Assembly: GCA_964574335.1 (NCBI GenBank) | Contig: CAZNNH010000009.1 | Location: forward strand, 11,634 to 75,633 | DNA from: an uncultured Acidobacteriota bacterium | GTDB taxonomy: Bacteria > Acidobacteriota > Vicinamibacteria > Fen-336 | Direction: 5' to 3' | DNA: 64,000 nt | In this document: piece after piece, positions 37,029 to 64,000 of the stretch | Position numbering within the stretch: position 1 is the stretch's first letter | Layout of the letters: each line of letters opens with the position of its first letter | The notes under the pieces: model-generated | Told to the model about the DNA's origin: nothing | Database searches by the model: none | What the model saw: the letters and a program-made list of their open reading frames with translations, nothing else | Made by a program: the position numbers and the translations under genes

Positions 37029-37320
37029 ATGATAGGCCACAAGGTGGGCGGCGGGCCAGCGGTGCCGCTATCATGTGGCGTGCCCTACGTCTACATCCTG
37101 CGCTGCGGCGACGGCTCCCTGTACACGGGGGCCACCAAGGACCTGGCCGCCCGCCTGCGCCAGCACCAGGCCGGGCGGGCCTCGCGCTACACCCGTGCCC
37201 ATCAGCCGGTGACCCTGGTCTGGTCGCGCCGGCTTCGTACCTGGAGCCAGTCGCTGCGCGAGGAGCACCGCATCAAGCGGCTGCGTCGCGCCGGCAAGGA
37301 GGCCCTGGTCGCGTCCGGAG
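37029..37320 (+). CDS. GIY-YIG nuclease family (UPF0213/YhbQ-like) domain; no stop codon before downstream TonB-dependent receptor (approximate 3' boundary)
   Basis: VPYVYILRCGDGSLYTGATKDLAARLRQHQAG...HRIKRLRRAGKEALV matches YhbQ-like GIY-YIG proteins (~95 aa), but the frame reads through into the receptor ORF ending 39569. Confidence 0.5.
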
Positions 37321-37370
37321 CGGACGGCGGCGTCGGTCGGCGCGCCCCAGCTCGGCGTGACGGGGCCGGG

Positions 37371-39569
37371 GTGCGGAGCGCGGTGCGAGGCCTGGCGGGC
37401 CTTCTGGTCGGTCTGCTGGTGGCCACGCCGGGACTGGCTTCGGTCCTCGAGGGCCGGGTCTCGTTCTCCGACGGTCGCGCCGTCGCCCGAGCCCGGGTGT
37501 CGATCCTCGGCCGGACCGGCAGCGTGCTCACGGACGAGCAGGGGCGCTTCTCCTGGTCACCGCTGCCGCAGCCTCCGTTCGAGATGATGGTGGCGCTGGC
37601 CGGCGGCGGCTACCTCAAGCCGGTCCGGATCGAGGCCTTGCCCGAGGGTCCCCCCCTCGAGATCGTCGTGGAGCCGACGATCGACGAGAACGTGACCGTC
37701 ACCGGGGGGCTCGCCCCGCACCTCCTACCTCCTCCCGCCGCCGGCACCAACTTGCTCACCGCGCGGGAGATCGGGGCGCGCGCGCCGGTGCACCTGACCC
37801 AGGCGCTCGAGAACGTGGCCGGCGTCGCCAGCATCTCGGAAGGCCAGGCCGCGGTCCCGGCGATCCGGGGTTTCGCCCACGGACGCACCCTGATCCTGCT
37901 CGACGGGACTCGGGTCACGGCCGAGCGCCGGGTGGGGCCGAGCGCGACCTTCCTCGACCCGGTGACCCTGGAGAGCGTCGAGGTGGCCCGCGGACCGGGG
38001 TCGGTCGCCTACGGCTCGGACGCCTTCGGTGGCGTGATCGATGCCCGCACCCGCCGTACCGCCCCGGGCTCCGGGACCGCCGGGCGCTTCGTGGGCGCCC
38101 TGGGTGCCGGGGTGCCTCAGGAGCGAGCGGCGATCGAGGTCGGGCACGGCTTCGCGAGCGGCGGCCTCATCTTCCAGGGCCACTATCGCAACCTCGACGA
38201 CTACACGAGCCCCGGGGGGGAGGTCCCCAACTCCGGCTCCCGCGACTTCGGGGGGCGGGCCCGCCTCGACCGTCGGATCGGCGCCGGGACCCTGAGCCTC
38301 GCCTGGCAGAGCGACCTGGGCCGGGACATCGAGCGGCCTCGCACCAACTCGACCACCACCCGCTTCTTCTATCCCAGCGAGGACTCGCACCGGCTGGTGG
38401 CGGACTGGAGGAGCGGCCCCGTCTCTGGCTTCAGCCAGCTCGGCGCCAGCGCCTTCCTGGGCAGCTACGCGATCGTCACCGACCAGGACCGCTTCGCGAC
38501 CGAGACCGCGCCACGCGGGGTGGAGCGGGCCGACGTCTCGGCCCGGGACTTTCACCTCCGCGGCTTCGCGGCCCGGACGGTGGGCCCGGCCCGCCTGGAG
38601 CTGGGCCTCGACGTGAACGGGCGCTTCGGCCTTCGGGCCCTCGACATCGACCGGGTCTACGACGCCGCCGGCACTCTCGCCGATGAGGAGGTCAGCGTCT
38701 CGATCGACGACGCCAGGCGCACCGACTACGCCGCCTTCTCCAGCGTCGAGGCGGCGGCCGGGAGTCGCGTTACCCTCCACGGCGGGCTGCGTCTGGACCA
38801 CGTGGTCACCCTCAACGTGGGGGGCTACTTCGGCGACCGATCGACTGGCCATGACGCGGCGTCGGGCTTCGCCGCGATCGCGGTTCTGCTGGCACGCGGG
38901 CTCTCGGCGACCGCCCAGGCTTCGAGCGGCTTCCGCGACCCGCTGCTCTCGGACCGCTACTACCGAGGGCCCACCGGCCGCGGCTTCATCACCGGCAACC
39001 CCGACCTCGATCCCGAGCGGAGCTGGCAGCTCGACCTGGCGCTGCGCTACGTCGCCGCCAGGTGGAGGGCGGCAGCCCACGCCTTCGACTACCGGGTCGA
39101 GGGCCTGATCGAGCGCTACGAGACGGAGCCCGACTACTTCTACTTCAGGAACCGGGGCCGGGCCCGAATGCGCGGCGTCGAGCTGGAGGTCCAGGTGGTG
39201 GCGCCGGGTGAGGTCTCCGTCGAGTTTTCCGGGCACCTGATCCGAGGCCACGCAGAGGAGGACGGTTCCCCCCTCGACGACGTTCCGCCGCCGACCCTGA
39301 CGCTCAGGCTGAGCCGCGACTTCGGGAGGGGCTTCGTGCTGGCGCGGGGGGCGCTCTACGCCGAAGACGATCGGCCGGGGCCCACCGAGCAGGCCCGGCC
39401 CGGCTACGGCCTGCTCGACCTGACCCTGGGTCTTCGTGTCGGCGAGCGGCTCGAGCTGCGTCTGCTCGGCCGCAACCTCCTCGACCACGCCTACCTGGTG
39501 AGCCCCGATCGGCGGGCGGTGCTGGCCCCCGGCCGCTCGCTGCTGGTGACGACGGTCCTGGCCTTCTGA
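37371..39569 (+). CDS. TonB-dependent receptor with CarboxypepD_reg-like N-terminal domain
   Basis: GTG 37371 gives signal peptide VRSAVRGLAGLLVGLLVATPGLASV, then LEGRVSFSDGRAVARARVSILGRTGSVLTDEQGRFSW (CarboxypepD_reg-like). Plug-like region ISEGQAAVPAIRGF...ILLDGTRV, beta-barrel. C-terminus ends ...SLLVTTVLAF with terminal F. Confidence 0.75.
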   Translation: MRSAVRGLAGLLVGLLVATPGLASVLEGRVSFSDGRAVARARVSILGRTGSVLTDEQGRFSWSPLPQPPFEMMVALAGGGYLKPVRIEALPEGPPLEIVVEPTIDENVTVTGGLAPHLLPPPAAGTNLLTAREIGARAPVHLTQALENVAGVASISEGQAAVPAIRGFAHGRTLILLDGTRVTAERRVGPSATFLDPVTLESVEVARGPGSVAYGSDAFGGVIDARTRRTAPGSGTAGRFVGALGAGVPQERAAIEVGHGFASGGLIFQGHYRNLDDYTSPGGEVPNSGSRDFGGRARLDRRIGAGTLSLAWQSDLGRDIERPRTNSTTTRFFYPSEDSHRLVADWRSGPVSGFSQLGASAFLGSYAIVTDQDRFATETAPRGVERADVSARDFHLRGFAARTVGPARLELGLDVNGRFGLRALDIDRVYDAAGTLADEEVSVSIDDARRTDYAAFSSVEAAAGSRVTLHGGLRLDHVVTLNVGGYFGDRSTGHDAASGFAAIAVLLARGLSATAQASSGFRDPLLSDRYYRGPTGRGFITGNPDLDPERSWQLDLALRYVAARWRAAAHAFDYRVEGLIERYETEPDYFYFRNRGRARMRGVELEVQVVAPGEVSVEFSGHLIRGHAEEDGSPLDDVPPPTLTLRLSRDFGRGFVLARGALYAEDDRPGPTEQARPGYGLLDLTLGLRVGERLELRLLGRNLLDHAYLVSPDRRAVLAPGRSLLVTTVLAF

Positions 39570-50457: not shown

Positions 50458-51364
50458 TCAAATGCCCTTGTAGACCAGCACCGGTCGGAGCCGCCGGACG
50501 ACGCGGGCGAGGTCGCTCTGCGCCCGCAGCACACACCTCAGGTCCTTGTAGGCGGACGGCGCCTCCTCGCGCAATGCCCGTGCCAGGCGATGGTCGAAGA
50601 AGATGCCCCGCGACTCGCGCGCCAACCTGGCCACGGAGATCTCGCGTCGGGCGGCCGAGCGCGAGAGTTGCCGGCCCGCGCCGTGGGCGCAGGATCCCAG
50701 CGATGCCGGGTTCCCCAGACCGACGACGTGGACGCTGAACGTGCCCATCGAGCCCGGCACCAGCCCGATCACACCGGCTCCCGCCGGGATCGCCCCTTTG
50801 CGGTGGACCCACAGCGTTTCGCTGCCGTGGGTCTCGCGACGCACGTGGTTGTGGTGGCAGCTCTCGAAGGTGTCCCAGAGCGGAGTCGCCTCTGCCACGT
50901 GGCCGAGCACCTCGGCGACCGCCTCCACCATCCGCCGGCGGCTCGCGTCGGCGTAGGCGAGGGCCCAGTCGACATCAGCCAGGTAGGATCGGCCGAGATC
51001 GCTCTCGGCCTCCAGGAAGCGCAGGCCGTGCCTCCCCACGCGGCAGCGACGCAGGTGGTGGGCCCGAATCGCCGGGCCGAGCCCACGGGAGCCGCTGTGC
51101 AGCATCAGCCAGAGCCGCCGCCGCGGCCGCCGCTTGGACGTCGAAGGCGATGGCCGCCATGCCGCAGCCGATATCGCCTCCCACCGCGCTGGGATAGAGC
51201 GTTCCGGATGTCGCGAGGACCGCGCCGACGCACACGTCCTCCGCCAGGTGGGCGTCCGGCATCAGCGCCACGTGACGCACGTTCTCGCTCTGTGCGAGCC
51301 GTTGGGCTGAGGCTCGGACTCCTTGCGGCAACGGCCCGTCGTGCCAGACGCGAAGGTCACCCAC
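50458..51364 (-). pseudogene. rtcB: RNA-splicing ligase RtcB: internally deleted (~110 aa missing between GCGM and HSGSRG) and frameshifted
   Basis: N-fragment (GTG 51364, AGGAGA RBS 6 nt upstream) encodes VALMPDAHLAEDVCVGAVLATSG...VGGDIGCGM. After a frame change at ~51105 the C-fragment encodes MLHSGSRGLG...CHHNHV...GSMGT...SCAHGAGR...VYKGI. The segment containing the conserved GNHF metal-ligand region is absent. Confidence 0.6.
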
Positions 51365-58122: not shown

Positions 58123-58925
58123 CCGAGCCTCGTCACCAGGGCCGCCAGCGCCAGCAGGAGGCCGAGAGCGCTCCAGTCCCGGGGGCGCATCCGTAGCTCG
58201 TCGAGCGTCGGGAGCTCACCGTGGAAGCCCCGGGACAACATGGCGAGGTAGACATCCCCGCTGACGCGGAGGCTCTTGCTCAGCAGCACACCCGCCGTGC
58301 CCGCCGCCAGCCGGCGTCCTTCCCGTGGCGGCAGCGATCCGAGCAGGCGGCTGCGGCGGGCGATCAGCATGCTCTGGCCGAGGCCGCACAGCAGCAGCAG
58401 GTAGCGGTAGCTCATCCCAAGCGTGACGACAAGGATGGCGGGGGCTCTCAGGGCGCGAAGCGCCTCGAGGAGCCGAGGCCAGGGTGTCGACAGGACCAGC
58501 AGCGCGGCCAGGGTGGCCGCCGCCTCGGCCCGGACTAGGAGGCGCACCGCGGCGGTGAGGCCGGTCGAGGTGACGCTCCACGTCGTCCCCGGTAGGCGCC
58601 AGAGGGGCGGGCCCGGGGTCAGGACCACGGCCGGCAGCACCACCAGGCCCGTGAAGAGAAGAACGGCGATCCAGACGCGGGTGGCCAGCAGGCGGGGAGA
58701 GATCCCGGAGAAGAGGCCCAGAAGCACCCCGAGGGCGAGGACAGAGGCGCTCACGTCGATCCGCGAGGAGGCCACGGTGGCGACCAGCAGCGCCAGCAGG
58801 CCGCACAGCTTGGCTCGGGGGTCGAGGCGCTGCAGGAGCCCCCCGCGCCCCCCGAGCTCCTCCGACCGCTCGGCGTCCTCGAGGGCCGCGGACAGGTTGG
58901 CGAGCGTCCGCTCGAGAAAGCTCAC
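58119..58925 (-). CDS. cbiQ: ECF transporter transmembrane (T) component, CbiQ family
   Basis: GTG 58925 in GTGA overlap with cbiMN stop; LDPRAKLCGLLALLVATVA N-terminus typical of CbiQ/EcfT; 5-6 TM; conserved ARRSR-type cytoplasmic loop (MLIARRSRLLG). Confidence 0.7.
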   Translation of the reverse strand: MSFLERTLANLSAALEDAERSEELGGRGGLLQRLDPRAKLCGLLALLVATVASSRIDVSASVLALGVLLGLFSGISPRLLATRVWIAVLLFTGLVVLPAVVLTPGPPLWRLPGTTWSVTSTGLTAAVRLLVRAEAAATLAALLVLSTPWPRLLEALRALRAPAILVVTLGMSYRYLLLLCGLGQSMLIARRSRLLGSLPPREGRRLAAGTAGVLLSKSLRVSGDVYLAMLSRGFHGELPTLDELRMRPRDWSALGLLLALAALVTRLG

Positions 58926-60004
58926 CCGGCCTCGGCTCCCGCGCCCGGCGGGCGTGAGCCCGTGCCGCGGCGCAGCAGGGCTCCGATGACGAGGCAGAGG
59001 AGGATGACCAGCCCCGTGCCGAGCATACCGGACATCAGGTATCCGAAGCCGGCGCTCTTGAGGAAGGACGGGGCGTAGTCTGGAAACGGGGCCGTCCAGA
59101 AGGACGACAGACGGGCAAGACCGCGGGGCACGGACTCCGGCGGCGCGATTCCGCCCGAGGCGGCGGTGATGGCGGCCCGCCCGGCGGGATCGGCGAAGTC
59201 GTCCGGAGACCATTCGCCCCAGGCGGTGCCGGCGGCCAGTAGCCCGAGCGGTGCCGCGACCAGGAGCGCGGCCAGGCCGAGCCACAGGCGTCGCACCGCG
59301 TCGCCTCGGCCCTCCCGGGCCAGGCCGGCGACGCCTCCGGCGAGCAGCTCCGGCTCCGCCTTCTGCAGCCAGCGCACGATCCCCGCAGAGACCAGCAGCT
59401 CGGCCACGCCGGCCACGGTGAGGTGTCCCAGCATCATCGCCGGGACCGCGATGCTCAGCGGGTAGGGGGCAAACAGAGGCGCTCCGGTCGCGTCGTGGAA
59501 GAGGGCGGGCTGGATCCCGAACTCGAGCGCCGCCAAGAGCGCCGAGGCGTTGAGCGCCAGGTAGCCGGCGGCGCCGGCCGCGAGGGCCCTGCGCCGTGAG
59601 GTGATCGCCGAGCCTCCCGCGAGCAGACGGTAGGCGACAAAGGCCACCCCCGACCCGAGGATGGCCATGTTGAAGGCGTTGGCCCCGAAGGCGGTCACGC
59701 CCCCGTCGCCGAAGAAGAGGGCCTGGATCAGGAGCGCCACCGACAGCGCGAGCATGGCGCCCCAGGGACCCAGCACGACCGTCGCGATCCCGACCCCGGT
59801 CGCGTGGCCGGTGGTCCCTCCCGGCAGCGGGATGTTGAACAGCATCACCACGAAGGAGAAGGCCGAGAACAGGGCCAGCAGCGGTACCAGGCGGGCGTCG
59901 AGGCGGCGTCGCAGCCGCCGCAGGGCGACATACCAGAACGGCGTCGCGCCCGCGTAGAGCGCCGCACACGTCGAGGGACTCAGATAGCCGTCGGGAATGT
60001 GCAT
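58922..60004 (-). CDS. cbiMN: Ni/Co ECF transporter substrate-specific component, CbiM-CbiN fusion
   Basis: N-terminus MHIPDGYLSP (hallmark MHIxxG of CbiM/NikM); 7 TM CbiM body, then periplasmic segment and extra C-terminal TM (LMSGMLGTGLVILLCLVIGALL) consistent with fused CbiN. Confidence 0.8.
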   Translation of the reverse strand: MHIPDGYLSPSTCAALYAGATPFWYVALRRLRRRLDARLVPLLALFSAFSFVVMLFNIPLPGGTTGHATGVGIATVVLGPWGAMLALSVALLIQALFFGDGGVTAFGANAFNMAILGSGVAFVAYRLLAGGSAITSRRRALAAGAAGYLALNASALLAALEFGIQPALFHDATGAPLFAPYPLSIAVPAMMLGHLTVAGVAELLVSAGIVRWLQKAEPELLAGGVAGLAREGRGDAVRRLWLGLAALLVAAPLGLLAAGTAWGEWSPDDFADPAGRAAITAASGGIAPPESVPRGLARLSSFWTAPFPDYAPSFLKSAGFGYLMSGMLGTGLVILLCLVIGALLRRGTGSRPPGAGAEAG

Positions 60005-60158
60005 GGCGTGTCGCGGGGCCGCCGGTGACCCCACCTGGCCATTATCCAACAGCCGGGGGCCGCCGTGAGGCCACTCGGGCCGGGACACGCCGACGTGCCG
60101 CTACGGGCGTCGTTTGGCACTAGTTCGTACCGGGACGGCTTCGGAGGGCTACGGACCG

Positions 60159-60179
60159 AGGCGCTCGTAGAGGACGACC
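60159..60179. repeat. Left copy of 21-bp direct repeat (att-like), within orphan gene-3'-end remnant 60149-60185
   Basis: Exact match to 63515-63535; flanking 40 bp ~75% similar. Confidence 0.7.
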
Positions 60180-60320
60180 GTGAGGGTCGTCTCTGTTTCT
60201 GATGTTCGGGGCGGGCGACGGGGGGATCTCGCTGAGATCGGATGGCTGACTGAGGCACACGTCGCTTCGCGACGTGTGCGGCGGTGCCTACAGTAGAATC
60301 CGCGAGAAGCTCGCGGAGTA

Positions 60321-61502
60321 GTGGAGGGTATGGTGTTTGCCGTGACTACTAGCCGTCGGAGGGGAGGCGTGCTGCTTCTCTTCTTGCTGGCGCTCGCATT
60401 CGGGGGCATGGGCGATGCGAAGGCGGGCGAGGAGTACAAAGGACATCGCTGTCCTTTCGACCCACACGACATCCCAGCCACGGAAGTAGACAGGCGGATG
60501 GAAGCACCCATGTCACCGCTCGAGCGGGCAATCTGCGCGGCCTGGTGCCTGAAGGAGGTGGACGCGGCGAAGCGCGCTACGGGACTGCGGGCTTTGGTGC
60601 CAGAGCGGGGTCCCCTGGAGGCCGCCCTCCGAGACCTGGTGAGCGGCGACCGAGCATCCGAGTACGCGGCCCTTGAACCTAGTGAGCTGGAAGAAGAACT
60701 CGTCCGCCGGCTGTTGCCGCACCTGAGTTCCCACGATGCTGGCGTGAGGGCGGGGGCTGCGTCTCTCCTGGGGCTCCTGGGCTCACCGGATGCCGTCCCC
60801 GCTCTTGGTGGGCTCGTCTCGGATCGGGACGCGGATGTGCGAGTGGCTGTGGTAGGTGCTCTTCGGGAGATCCATGATCCCCGGACTTTGGGCCCCCTGG
60901 TTCGGGCGGCCCGTGGTTCAGACCCGTTTGTGGGAATATCAGCCGTCGCGGGAGTTGCTGAAGTCGGCGGGCGGGACGCCCGCGAGGCTCTCATTGAGAT
61001 TGTGGGCGACCGCAGGCTGGCCCGGAACGTGAGGCAGGCTGCGGCCGGACGGCTCCGTGCGACCAACGACCCGGCAGCACGGGCGGCGGCCGAGAGGTAT
61101 GTCGCAACGCTCCGTCCGCAGTGGCAGCGAGCGTTCTACTTTGCGGGTCTTCTGTATGTGATGGCCTTCTTCGCAAGCCGGCCCAACAGCGGGAAGGGAT
61201 GGCGGGTCGCGTACTACGCAGCCGTCGTGGGCTCAGTCATAGTGCTGGTGAACCCGGTATGGCTCATCGCTGGGGAAGAGACCGCGGTCTTCTGGGGCCT
61301 GGCTGTTCTGTACCCCCTCGGGCTTGGGCTTGGGGGGGTTCCGATCCTGTGGCTCCTGAAGCGGCTCGGGCACGTGGAGACCGCTCAGGCTATGGGGAAG
61401 CGCCTCTGCCGGAGCATCTTCGTCATCTGGGGGTCGCTGGCGGTCTGGGTTGTCGTCGTATTCCTGCTCATGCTCGTGGGCCTGGCCCTCGCTTGGCGAT
61501 GA
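60321..61502 (+). CDS. HEAT-repeat (PBS-lyase-like) protein with N-terminal signal/TM and C-terminal 4-TM membrane domain
   Basis: HEAT-like repeats (DAGVRAGAASLLGLLGSPDAVPALGGLVSDRDADVRVAVVGALREIHDPRTLGPLVRAA...); C-terminal hydrophobic helices; lower GC than surroundings. Confidence 0.55.
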   Translation: MEGMVFAVTTSRRRGGVLLLFLLALAFGGMGDAKAGEEYKGHRCPFDPHDIPATEVDRRMEAPMSPLERAICAAWCLKEVDAAKRATGLRALVPERGPLEAALRDLVSGDRASEYAALEPSELEEELVRRLLPHLSSHDAGVRAGAASLLGLLGSPDAVPALGGLVSDRDADVRVAVVGALREIHDPRTLGPLVRAARGSDPFVGISAVAGVAEVGGRDAREALIEIVGDRRLARNVRQAAAGRLRATNDPAARAAAERYVATLRPQWQRAFYFAGLLYVMAFFASRPNSGKGWRVAYYAAVVGSVIVLVNPVWLIAGEETAVFWGLAVLYPLGLGLGGVPILWLLKRLGHVETAQAMGKRLCRSIFVIWGSLAVWVVVVFLLMLVGLALAWR

Positions 61503-61535
61503 TGAAGGGGGTGGCCGGCAGTTGGTGAGACGGGC

Positions 61536-61572
61536 GCCGCCCTCAGGATGACACCCGGGCCTGACCCGGCGA
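61536..61572. repeat. Solitary copy of CCCTCAGGATGAC-core repeat (related to tandem array at 63308-63425)
   Basis: gccctcaggatgacacccgggcctgacccgg shares the 14-nt core ccctcag(a/g)atgac(a/g) with the three tandem units downstream of the HNH gene. Confidence 0.5.
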
Positions 61573-61859
61573 CGCCCAGGTGCTCAGGCTCCGCGACGGA
61601 CAACGGAGGCCCTCGGTGCAGAGCTCTTCTGTTCCCCGGAAGGATCTGCTCTCTTCACTTTCTTCAACTTTCCACTTGACAGGTTCTCGGAAACGGGTTC
61701 ATGGAGAAGACGGACGCCTACCAGAACGCCGCTCTCGCCGCGTGACGTGGCCGATGGAAGAGGCAGTGACGCGAGGGATCTCCGCGACGCACCCCAGGCG
61801 CGTAGCGCCCAACGCTCGGCCTCTCCGACGGTCGCGAAGGGGCCGCCTATATTCCAGGC

Positions 61860-63221
61860 ATGAGCATCACACCGACGACCACGCTCGAGGCGCTCGAGGA
61901 TGACGTGCTGCTGGAACGGGTCCGCGTTCTGGCGAAGGACTCGCGGCGCATCGAGGCCGATCTCATCGCCCACCTCGCCGAGGTCGACGTGCGTGGGCTC
62001 CTGGCACGGCACGCCGCGTCGTCGACGTTCGGCTACTGCCGGGAGACCCTGAACCTCTCCGAGTCCGAGGCCTATCTCCGAATCGCGGTGGCGCGGGCTT
62101 CGCGGCGGCACCCGATGCTGCTGGAGATGCTGGCCGACGGGCGGCTGCACCTCACCGGGGCCGGCAAGCTGGCGCCCCACCTGACGGTGGAGAATCGCGA
62201 CGGACTGCTCGCCCGCGCCACCCGCCAGTCGAAGCGCCGGATCGAGGAGCTGATCGCCGAGGTGTGCCCGCAGCCCGACGTCCCGGCACGGATCCGGAAG
62301 CTGCCCGTTCGCCAACTGCGTCCGGACGCAGTTGGCGGTCGGGCAGACGGTCCTGAAGGGTGCCGTCTTGCTGGCCCGACGCCGGAGGCGTTGGAGGACG
62401 CTGCTCGTCCAGCGACTGTGCCGGCGCAGGCATCACCGCCGTCCCCGCGGGGCGCAGTCGATGCGGCCGTCCCGTCGCCGCCCCTGGATGCCGCCCTTGC
62501 CGCGGTCGCTGCGGCGCAGGCGCCACCCGTCGCCCCGGCGCTGGTCCGACCGGCACCGACGGCGGCAGCGCGGATCTCGCCGCTGGCGCCGGCACGCTTC
62601 AAGGTCCAGTTCACGGCTTCGGGGGAGCTCCGCGACAAGCTCGAACGCCTGCGGGAGCTGATGCGCGCCAGCGTGCCAAGCGGGGACCTGGCGGCGGTGA
62701 TGGAGGCGGCGGTGACGGAGAAGCTGGAGCGGCTCGAGGCCCGGCGCTACGCGCAGACGAAGGCTCCCCGGAAGACGATGGCCGACACCGATACCTCGCC
62801 GAGCTCACGGAAGATCCCGGCAGCCGTCCGGCGGGCGGTGTACGAACGGGACGGGGGCCGCTGCACCTTCGTGGACGCGCAGGGCAAGCGCTGCACGGAA
62901 CGCCACCGACTGGAGTTCCACCACGCCGGCAAGGCCTGGGCGCGCGGCGGCGACCACAGCGTGAGGAACATTCGGCTGGCGTGTGTCCGCCATCACCAAC
63001 ACCTGGCCGACCTGGAGTTTGGTCGCGCATGGATGGATCGGTGCCGTCGATCGGACGCTGGCGTTCCGGAGCGCCATCGCCCGGTTGAGGCTGACCCGGC
63101 GGCGCCGCATCGTCAGTTTCCTCGGCGCGCATCGTGTGCCACGACATCCCGCAGGGAGGCATCTCGGGTGCGCAGCTATGCGGCGGCCTCTCGAAGAGCG
63201 CACGGCCAGTCGGCGATGTGA
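61860..63221 (+). CDS. DUF222 plus HNH endonuclease domain protein
   Basis: N-terminal DUF222-like region (LEDDVLLERVRVLAKDSRRIEADLIAHLAEVDVRGL...GYCRETLNLSESEAYLRIAVAR). C-terminal HNH motif IPAAVRRAVYERDGGRCTFVDAQGKRCTERHRLEFHHAGKAWARGGDHSVRNIRLACVRHH; Ala/Pro-rich linker; true stop may be effectively earlier (C-terminal 60 aa low complexity). Confidence 0.75.
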   Translation: MSITPTTTLEALEDDVLLERVRVLAKDSRRIEADLIAHLAEVDVRGLLARHAASSTFGYCRETLNLSESEAYLRIAVARASRRHPMLLEMLADGRLHLTGAGKLAPHLTVENRDGLLARATRQSKRRIEELIAEVCPQPDVPARIRKLPVRQLRPDAVGGRADGPEGCRLAGPTPEALEDAARPATVPAQASPPSPRGAVDAAVPSPPLDAALAAVAAAQAPPVAPALVRPAPTAAARISPLAPARFKVQFTASGELRDKLERLRELMRASVPSGDLAAVMEAAVTEKLERLEARRYAQTKAPRKTMADTDTSPSSRKIPAAVRRAVYERDGGRCTFVDAQGKRCTERHRLEFHHAGKAWARGGDHSVRNIRLACVRHHQHLADLEFGRAWMDRCRRSDAGVPERHRPVEADPAAPHRQFPRRASCATTSRREASRVRSYAAASRRAHGQSAM

Positions 63222-63307
63222 TCCTGAGTGCTTCTTCGACGCTGCGCCCCGGAAGGATCTCGGCCGCGTCGCCTGAGTCCCGGATTCTTCGGGCGCTCGC
63301 AGACCGG

Positions 63308-63425
63308 CTCCCTCAGAATGACGTGTCAGGCCTGAGGCCAGCGGCGCCCTCAGAATGACGCGTGTGGCCTGAGGCTCGCGGTGCCCTCAGGATGACGCTC
63401 TGGTCCGATCCGGCGCCGCGAAGGT
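63308..63425. repeat. Three tandem ~38-39-bp repeats, each with internal inverted repeat (CCTCAG...CTGAGG hairpin), REP/MITE-like
   Basis: Units tccctcagaatgacgtgtcaggcctgaggccagcggcg / ccctcagaatgacgcgtgtggcctgaggctcgcggtg / ccctcaggatgacgctctggtccgatccggcgccg; first two have perfect 6-7-bp stems. Confidence 0.65.
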
Positions 63426-63504
63426 CGGTTCCCCGACTGCGAACGGAGAGCGTCGCCGGCTGGTGTCTTGGGTGGCCGCTCACGGGGCACTTCCTTCTGG
63501 AAGG

Positions 63505-64000
63505 TCACCGAGCCAGGCGCTCGTAGAGGACGACCTTCAGGCTGGTCAGCGGGCTGAGCGAGTGGAACGATTGCTCCTCGACCTTTCGGTACGCGTCGAG
63601 GAACTGGTCAGGGAAGGTCCTGAATTGCTCGTGGTGCAGCACGACGAAGAGCCGCGGGTGGCCGGCGCTGGCCTTCTCGAGGCCGTCCCGGCTCGGCACC
63701 AGGCGTGTCCCCTTGGGCCCGCCCGGGACGTCCGGCAACGGAAAGATGACGGTCGGCGTCGAGAGCGGGTCGGCGCCGGCCTGGCGGAGGTAGTAGTCGT
63801 AGGCGTGGATGCCCCCTGCGGCATGGAACAGGATGGCGTCGCCCGGCCGGCTGTGGCCGACCACGAATCGTGTCGCCGACTCCCAGTCCCCATCCCAGTT
63901 GGCCATGGTCCGGTAGTAGCCTCCGTTGAGGACGACGTTGAAGCCGAGGGCCAGGACGGCCGCGGCGATGATCGCCCTCTTGACCCTGGGGGACGCGTGT
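63505..64000 (-). CDS. 3' portion of membrane protein gene (TM helix plus ~130-aa periplasmic-type C-terminal domain); 5' end beyond window
   Basis: Reading frame open to window edge (...RVKRAIIAAAVLALGFNVVLNGGYYRTMANWDG...); ends ...LKVVLYERLAR*; possibly C-terminal region of a large polytopic glycosyltransferase-like protein (speculative). Confidence 0.4.
   Translation of the reverse strand, partial: HASPRVKRAIIAAAVLALGFNVVLNGGYYRTMANWDGDWESATRFVVGHSRPGDAILFHAAGGIHAYDYYLRQAGADPLSTPTVIFPLPDVPGGPKGTRLVPSRDGLEKASAGHPRLFVVLHHEQFRTFPDQFLDAYRKVEEQSFHSLSPLTSLKVVLYERLAR
63515..63535. repeat. Right copy of 21-bp direct repeat (att-like) at 3' end of intact gene
   Basis: Exact match to 60159-60179. 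Confidence 0.7.

Follow-up and report, generated by a model that had tools for sequence, protein, structure and literature searches.

A small integrase-less islet flanked by att-like repeats at the 3′ end of a PMT_2-family glycosyltransferase gene

The locus and its repeated borders

We analyzed a window of 64,000 nucleotides (64 kb) of contig CAZNNH010000009.1, from an uncultured Acidobacteriota bacterium. Close to the right end of this window, an islet of about 3.3 kb lies between cbiM, a cobalt/nickel transporter gene, and the 3′ part of a membrane glycosyltransferase gene. It holds two genes of its own, which encode a HEAT-repeat membrane protein and an HNH protein. The last codons of the glycosyltransferase gene are found at both borders of the islet, and in a related contig the two flanks are joined at a single copy of them.

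The 21-mer AGGCGCTCGTAGAGGACGACC occurs exactly at 60159-60179 and at 63515-63535, both times in the same minus-strand context, as a preliminary description of this DNA had noted. No third match with up to three mismatches exists in the window, and the 21-mer was not found in 104 other loci nor in viral contigs. The chance expectation for the window is 0.02, and none of 100 shuffled sequences gave two matches. The 21-mer is the perfect core of a longer homology between the two junctions (Table 1), of about 54 nt and about 80% identity, which reached an alignment score of 50-51 as compared with best scores of 27-35 in 200 shuffles. The arms on either side of the core are about 60-70% identical between the left and the right copies.

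Read on the minus strand, the left copy ends in ...TTLTVVLYERLGP and a stop codon and is an orphan located 145 bp upstream of cbiM. It had been rightly described as a remnant, but it comprises 13 codons plus the stop instead of 12, and the homology extends well past the 21 bp. The right copy ends in ...TSLKVVLYERLAR and a stop codon, and closes an open frame running past the window edge. This fragment, the 3′ 164 codons of the target gene, had no Pfam match, and neither a word-based search of proteins nor a scan of metagenomes brought up any relatives. An exhaustive HMMER search identified it as the C-terminal periplasmic domain of PMT_2 (GT-C) glycosyltransferases of about 500 amino acids, so that the upstream gene left unnamed in the preliminary description could be assigned to this family, in agreement with its orthologue in the related contig L104 (see below). 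The PMT_2 domain proper (PF13231) lies beyond the window edge; it was seen in the L104 orthologue, which is 89% identical to the fragment at the amino acid level, and in the distant homologues. The C-termini of these homologues bear a conserved V.LYER motif, and because this motif is family-wide, the likeness of the two copies in amino acids is explicable by family conservation. The chance of identity at 21 of 21 nucleotides between independent genes, synonymous sites included, is estimated from codon bias at less than about 1%.

The right half of the left core can pair with the adjoining arm of the islet in a hairpin with an 8-bp stem (Table 1), which may be an inverted repeat of a recombinase site or the terminator of a circular form. 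No terminal inverted repeats joining the two inner ends of the islet were found, and an Rfam search of positions 59800-64000 gave no match.

A related contig carries the empty site

Proteins that cluster with CbiM and with the HEAT protein led to related metagenomic contigs. One of them, L104 (JGI 3300009506, Ga0118657_10067397; 5,394 bp), is about 90-92% identical to the window at the nucleotide level. It carries a 494-aa PMT_2 gene ending in ...SLKVVLYERLGR and a stop codon, followed by 119 bp and then by cbiM, with no HEAT or HNH gene between them. Once reverse-complemented, L104 aligns with window positions 58540-60185 (89.8% identity) and 63507-63995 (91.8%), and the two alignments share an overlap of 35 nt on the lone repeat copy AGTCGCTCGTAGAGGACGACC, with one mismatch. 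Next to the core, towards the stop codon, L104 and the left copy share 16 of 19 positions, including a TAG stop in both, but L104 and the right copy only 11 of 18. Towards the gene body the situation is reversed: there the right copy is almost the same as L104, whereas the left copy (60180-60193) agrees at only 8 of 14 positions. The arms on the islet side are only 57-61% like the L104 site. In these similarities, L104 stands to the left and right copies in the B-O-B′ relation of a bacterial attachment site, attB, to attL and attR.

Because L104 has an empty site with an attB-like match to both outer flanks, the segment 60180-63514 appears to be an insertion; read in reverse, it would be a precisely deletable unit. 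The left copy would be the displaced native gene end (…VVLYERLGP-stop), and the present end (…VVLYERLAR-stop) would have been supplied by the insert. The gene end is replaced in frame, with …LAR-stop in the current gene as compared with …LGR-stop in L104 and …LGP-stop in the displaced copy. A reconstructed attP would be a mimic, of about 54 nt, of the last 14 codons of the target gene. The proposal of the preliminary description, that an element had entered the 3′ end of a protein gene and supplied a replacement, is supported by the single repeat copy at the PMT_2 gene end of L104 and by the hybrid attL and attR flanks.

Of the ORFs (open reading frames) of the islet, only two have homologues, the HNH gene and the HEAT/transmembrane gene. 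Pfam and NCBIfam revealed neither an integrase nor a transposase in the islet or among 30 other ORFs of the window; the interior is therefore free of any recognized recombinase family, as had been proposed. The islet also does not look like a DDE transposon or an insertion sequence, since it has neither terminal inverted repeats nor a transposase. Furthermore, its repeat is unlike a target duplication, in that the flanks of the repeat are imperfectly similar and the repeat pre-exists as gene sequence in L104.

The islet is inherited vertically and decays

Two further contigs, L099 (JGI 3300056865) and L105 (JGI 3300056972), 99.4% identical to each other, carry cbiO, cbiQ, cbiM, the HEAT gene and the HNH gene in the same order as the window. 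Between L099 and the window, the identity is 94.9% in the flanks and 94.0% in the islet. The islet has diverged in step with its flanks; it is therefore old and has been inherited vertically with them since the insertion. The presence of the islet in these relatives at about 95% identity, with as much divergence as in the flanks, indicates that it is not recent. From these comparisons, it would predate the split of the window, L099 and L105 lineages, and would have arisen later than the L104 lineage or independently of it.

In L099 and L105, the positions 60057-60220, which hold the native spacer and attL, are replaced by 101 bp containing a REP-like (repetitive extragenic palindromic-like) unit (L099 2645-2745). 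This state of the spacer is derived, because L104 shows the spacer of the window to be native. Both contigs also lack 60267-60370 (104 bp), with which the start codon of the HEAT gene and part of its signal peptide are gone, and both end inside the HNH gene. In L081 (JGI 3300062459), an HNH unit 97% identical to window positions 61812-63323 has lost 1 nt, which breaks the ORF in two; the contig terminates in the first REP-like unit. The islet is thus decaying, with attL and the HEAT start lost in one lineage and another HNH copy frameshifted. Three evolutionary stages are visible: the empty site, the intact junctions and the decayed left junction.

Two strong hairpins lie just upstream of the HEAT gene, at 60255-60280 (GCACACGTCG…CGACGTGTGC) and at 60300-60317 (CCGCGAG-AAG-CTCGCGG). 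The leader segment that holds them is mostly deleted in L099 and L105.

Table 1. Features of the islet and of its borders (window coordinates; strand given as + or -, and as a dot for none).
Feature	Position	Strand	Remarks
attL-like junction	60139..60191	-	displaced native glycosyltransferase 3′ end (putative); codons 60149-60190; core 60159-60179
attR-like junction	63494..63547	-	core 63515-63535; last two codons and stop (…LAR-stop) probably supplied by the element; stop 63505-63507
Inserted DNA (probable)	60180..63514	.	3,335 bp, or 3,356 bp with one repeat copy; missing in L104, present in L099 and L105
Hairpin with 8-bp stem	60172..60192	+	right half of core and element arm: GGACGACC-GTGAG-GGTCGTCT, then a T-rich run
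HEAT/membrane gene	60330..61502	+	signal peptide, HEAT repeats, C-terminal multi-pass membrane region; Pfam HEAT_2 3.6e-15
REP-like sequences after the HEAT gene	61526..61647	+	one CCCTCAGGATGAC unit at 61526-61581; CTGTTCCCCGGAAGGATCT at 61629-61647, abutting the left edge of the HNH unit
HNH unit	61653..63323	+	non-coding leader 61653-61859; ORF 61860-63221, 453 aa; conserved 3′ flank 63218-63323
Palindrome, 46 bp	62301..62346	+	no spacer, centre TCCGGA; inside the HNH ORF
REP-like array after the HNH gene	63218..63425	+	45-nt unit TCCTGAG...CCCCGGAAGGATCTCGGCCG at 63222-63266; 2.5 tandem 37-nt units at 63305-63398; degenerate copy to 63425
Target gene, 3′ part	63505..64000	-	PMT_2-family (GT-C, ArnT/PMT-like) membrane glycosyltransferase, about 494 aa; intact up to the window edge
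cbiM	58922..60004	-	S component of a Co/Ni ECF (energy-coupling factor) transporter, 360 aa; Pfam CbiM 2.7e-56 and PDGLE
Native intergenic region	60005..60148	.	from the old glycosyltransferase stop to cbiM; collinear, with indels, with the 119-bp PMT_2-cbiM spacer of L104

The HEAT gene is cargo of foreign composition

The G+C content at third codon positions (GC3) is 0.73 in the HEAT gene and 0.82 in the HNH gene. The window ORFs chosen for a gene-like composition (GC3 of at least 0.80) have a mean of 0.88 ± 0.05, and the neighbours that were checked (cbiO, a sulfatase gene and the PMT_2 fragment) lie at 0.90-0.92. The part of the islet with the HEAT gene is the lowest-GC stretch of 1.5 kb in the window (65.8%). 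The islet had been called lower in GC altogether; this holds for the HEAT part but not for the whole, whose 68.5%, as compared with 70.8% in the rest of the window, is unexceptional and falls within the range of 3.3-kb segments of the window (minimum 68.1%). The HEAT/membrane gene is cargo of foreign composition. Only two full-length homologues of its product (88% and 46% identity) exist among 5.8 billion proteins, and the protein had no match in viral contigs. A relationship with a 583-aa HEAT-like neighbour in L104 was considered and rejected, the two proteins being unrelated.

The HNH unit recurs at unrelated loci

The HNH unit is 82-84% identical at the nucleotide level to units in two other contigs, L102 and L103, where it stands in unrelated gene contexts; one sample yielded both L102 and L104, the contig with the empty site. 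The two islet genes are found together in L099 and L105, but no HEAT gene is associated with the HNH copies of L102 and L103. Direct repeats of at least 14 bp or gene-end duplications were not found around the HNH homologues of L102, L101, L085 and L084, a small sample; the window, taken as positive control in the same test, scored 50 against a shuffle maximum of 27. The HNH gene is a separate mobile unit, with copies at other loci that are without gene-end duplications, and is probably not the driver that its position had suggested. The comparison of these loci points to an independently mobile module that is lodged in the islet.

The HNH family is very large, with more than 2,376 matches, many of them on chromosomal contigs of megabase scale, some named Vicinamibacteria; no relatives were found in plasmids, viral contigs or PDB sequences. 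The HNH motif has a Pfam E value of 0.08 in the islet protein, and HNH (PF01844) is recognized at E ≤ 0.01 in 9 of 24 family members. The label DUF222-HNH given at first is not supported by Pfam: DUF222 (PF02720) had no match at E ≤ 10 in the islet protein and none at E ≤ 0.01 in the 24 family members. One homologue (P0041) carries the NCBI name 'HNH endonuclease signature motif containing protein', a group that includes the mycobacterial REP13E12/DUF222 proteins. The islet protein resembles this group in its N-terminal helical domain, its C-terminal HNH motif and its abundance at scattered loci, but differs in that Pfam DUF222 is unmatched, so that it is at most a candidate member of the group. 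In an AlphaFold model, the helical domain at the N-terminus is predicted with confidence and an HNH domain is also present; the model gave no significant fold match in PDB, with only weak ParB-like and McrA-like hints.

The non-coding leader of the unit, of about 207 bp, starts directly after CCCCGGAAGGATCT and has no match in Rfam. It is conserved at the unrelated loci (82-84% nucleotide identity; L102 from 2512, L103 from 374), where it runs on into the ORF. Within the ORF, the 46-bp palindrome is kept by compensatory changes, CCAACTG/CAGTTGG in the window being CCGACTG/CAGTCGG in L102. It is also present at L102 3159-3204, L103 1030-1059 and L082 358-391, with an extra copy upstream of the gene in L103, and is not present in HNH homologues at about 45% identity. 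This palindrome may be a cis-acting hairpin or cruciform of the HNH subfamily.

Two types of REP-like sequence always accompany the HNH unit: a 37-nt tandem repeat with CCCTCAGRATGAC and a unit of 45-49 nt, CATCCTGAG…GAAGGATC. The CCCTCAGRATGAC motif occurs four times in the window, always within the islet, to which the REP-like repeats of the window are confined. These repeats are lineage-specific and were also found at L102 1958, 4555 and 4730 and at L099 2699-2745. The REP-like region folds no better than shuffled sequence. The 101-bp segment of L099 was considered as the 3′ remnant of another HNH element; this was rejected, because L102 shows the 45-49-nt unit to be a dispersed REP-like repeat. 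The contigs L081 and L099 break inside or beside such repeats. A further contig, L098 (Ga0315536_1012259; 3,762 bp), encodes HNH residues 1-61 at its beginning and, on the same strand, residues 54-102 of a related copy at its end. This arrangement points to two HNH units at a distance of about 3.6 kb, or else to an artefact of the assembly.

Origin of the islet

The reading that we prefer, and to which we give about an even chance, is that of a decayed integrative element resembling a cis-mobilizable element (CIME), with its att sites kept and its integration genes gone. A CIME retains attL and attR and has no integration and transfer genes (PMC5704250), and this is the state in which the islet was found. 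A small element, as a circle, would have recombined with the chromosome inside the 21 bp of identity to the last codons (VVLYERL) of the PMT_2 gene. The attachment site of the element would have resembled the gene end over about 54 nt, and because of this mimicry the gene would have been left intact with only its last residues changed, from …LGR/LGP-stop to …LAR-stop. Concomitantly, the native gene end would have been pushed 3.3 kb away, beside cbiM. The crossover would have been made by a site-specific recombinase, either lost through internal deletion or supplied in trans, and the HNH gene and the REP-like repeats would be a separate selfish module lodged in the islet. Judged from the DNA, the core in the 3′ end of a gene, the in-frame restoration, the diverged arms and the core/arm inverted repeat look like traces of site-specific integrative elements. 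Of the features that define such elements, the border repeats, the empty site and the in-frame replacement of the 3′ end were found; a tyrosine or serine recombinase of its own was not. The preliminary description had left the choice between a decayed island and an HNH-mediated cassette, and the evidence leans towards the former.

In Streptococcus thermophilus, the ICESt1/ICESt3 family occupies the 3′ end of fda. Like CIMEs and other islands in gene 3′ ends that derive by decay from integrative and conjugative elements (ICEs) or integrative and mobilizable elements (IMEs), the islet has repeats that duplicate the 3′ end of the target and an end, supplied by the element, that keeps the target gene intact; it also shares with them attL and attR without integration or transfer genes (PMC5704250), and has cargo of foreign composition. 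It differs from them by its size of only 3.3 kb, by the lack of any recognizable trace of genes for an integrase, a relaxase or conjugation, and by the lack of a known parent ICE or IME with the same att site. Its host belongs to a high-GC environmental lineage, and its core is embedded in a mimic of about 54 nt with arms of about 60% identity.

Several points weigh against the decayed element. Site-specific recombination is read from the architecture alone, an integrase having been seen nowhere. In principle, the empty site of L104 could arise by precise deletion across the repeats, and the polarity of gain and loss is unproven. A related full-length element with the same core was not found, in a search that had little power because the target gene is without close relatives outside the lineage. 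The 21-bp identity could also support a rare RecA-dependent or microhomology-mediated integration. Finally, an endonuclease gene in an insert that brings a replacement gene end is also the architecture of the mORF (mobile endonuclease ORF) elements of fungal mitochondria (PMC3630166).

A one-off integration of the Campbell type without a dedicated recombinase, after which the islet would never have been self-mobile, we consider rather unlikely. A circular fragment with a stretch like the 3′ end of a PMT_2 gene, for example that of another lineage, would have entered by a RecA-dependent or microhomology crossover in the 21 bp. The homology block does resemble a diverged gene end, any PMT_2 paralogue or orthologue would provide V.LYER, and the missing recombinase, in the islet as in the window, is as expected, together with the terminal inverted repeats and the second instance of the element that were not found. 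However, an identity of 21 bp is at the lower limit for homologous recombination. In-frame restoration of a gene end and a perfect core between arms of about 60% identity are more typical of evolved att sites, and the core/arm hairpin hints at an inverted repeat bound by a protein.

That the HNH gene drove the insertion, as in a bacterial analogue of the mitochondrial mORF elements, appears unlikely. The endonuclease would cut the uninterrupted gene end in naive genomes, and repair would copy in the cassette. The latter would bring a cleavage-resistant 3′ end, and the native end would stay downstream as a second homology arm. In mitochondria, mORFs with a foreign gene C-terminus have been described in atp6 of Allomyces macrogynus and in atp6, atp9, cox2 and nad3 of Glomus (PMC3630166). 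They have in common with the islet an endonuclease gene, an in-frame replacement C-terminus and a displaced, diverged native end, and the order of the hybrids is the same: gene core, inserted C-terminus, endonuclease ORF, displaced native C-terminus (PMC3630166). The 453-aa HNH ORF of the insert is intact, and the size of its family, with close members at different loci, is the behaviour of a selfish gene. Furthermore, beyond the core the sequence of either junction departs from that of the empty site, and a recognition site of about 30-40 bp would therefore be destroyed by the insertion. The endonucleases of the mORFs, for which cleavage has been demonstrated, are of the LAGLIDADG or GIY-YIG type and directly follow the inserted C-terminus, often in frame. 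In the islet, by contrast, an HNH gene lies on the opposite strand. It does not face the replaced end but points the other way, with REP-like repeats in between, and the extra cargo, the HEAT gene of 1.2 kb, stands between it and the displaced end. Moreover, the borders of the HNH unit differ from those of the islet, the unit recurs in unrelated contexts, and its relatives at the four loci examined are without duplications. The free-standing homing endonuclease genes of T4-like phages are comparable in that a stand-alone nuclease is variably present between conserved genes (PMC2988022), but intronless homing in phages leaves no direct repeats and requires long flanking homology, and no phage context was found for the islet. 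A still more doubtful proposal is that the large HNH family, with its leader, palindrome and REP-like repeats, is a chromosomal homing system of bacteria, which here would have moved a gene-end cassette together with cargo, in the manner of the mORF elements.

The least tenable explanation, highly improbable, is that nothing was inserted, the left copy having matched by chance or being left over from a second PMT_2 paralogue in tandem, between which and the target the family-wide V.LYER would make amino-acid similarity expected; it is refuted by the empty site of L104, with one gene, one repeat copy and collinear flanks on both sides, and the flank downstream of the left copy is orthologous to the native spacer of L104.

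The islet belongs to a kind already known, the integrase-less, att-flanked islet in a gene 3′ end, and is a clean example of it, small and verified by an empty site, in a poorly sampled high-GC environmental lineage. The HNH/REP module is the more intriguing loose end, and the locus draws attention to a very abundant HNH gene family. If it were true that the HNH protein cuts the empty site, the islet would be a rare counterpart, in a bacterial chromosome, of the endonuclease-driven gene-end replacement of fungal mitochondria. Of modest practical value are the exact att-like sequences, which can be looked for in sequencing reads.

Neighbouring genes and other observations

The native gene to the left of the insertion site is cbiM. 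Its true start (MHIPDG) is at position 60004, and it has orthologues in L104, L099 and L105. Like cbiO and cbiQ, it is on the minus strand. When genome contigs were scanned with CbiM, the best match was 67% identical and synteny was lacking; the glycosyltransferase, HEAT and HNH proteins were present in none of the 80 loci.

Two further observations concern ORFs of the window outside the islet. An ORF of 846 aa at 37029-39569 (plus strand) has an N-terminal GIY-YIG nuclease domain (residues 19-88; 2.4e-13), to which the plug and the barrel of a TonB-dependent receptor are joined in frame. Probably the ORF of the receptor has been extended by read-through from a small GIY-YIG gene; otherwise, this is an unusual fusion. 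In the ORF at 50458-51105 (minus strand), the similarity to RtcB is limited to the C-terminal half of the latter (profile positions 184-426), and the ORF is either a truncated gene or the result of a mis-set start in the mechanical list of ORFs.

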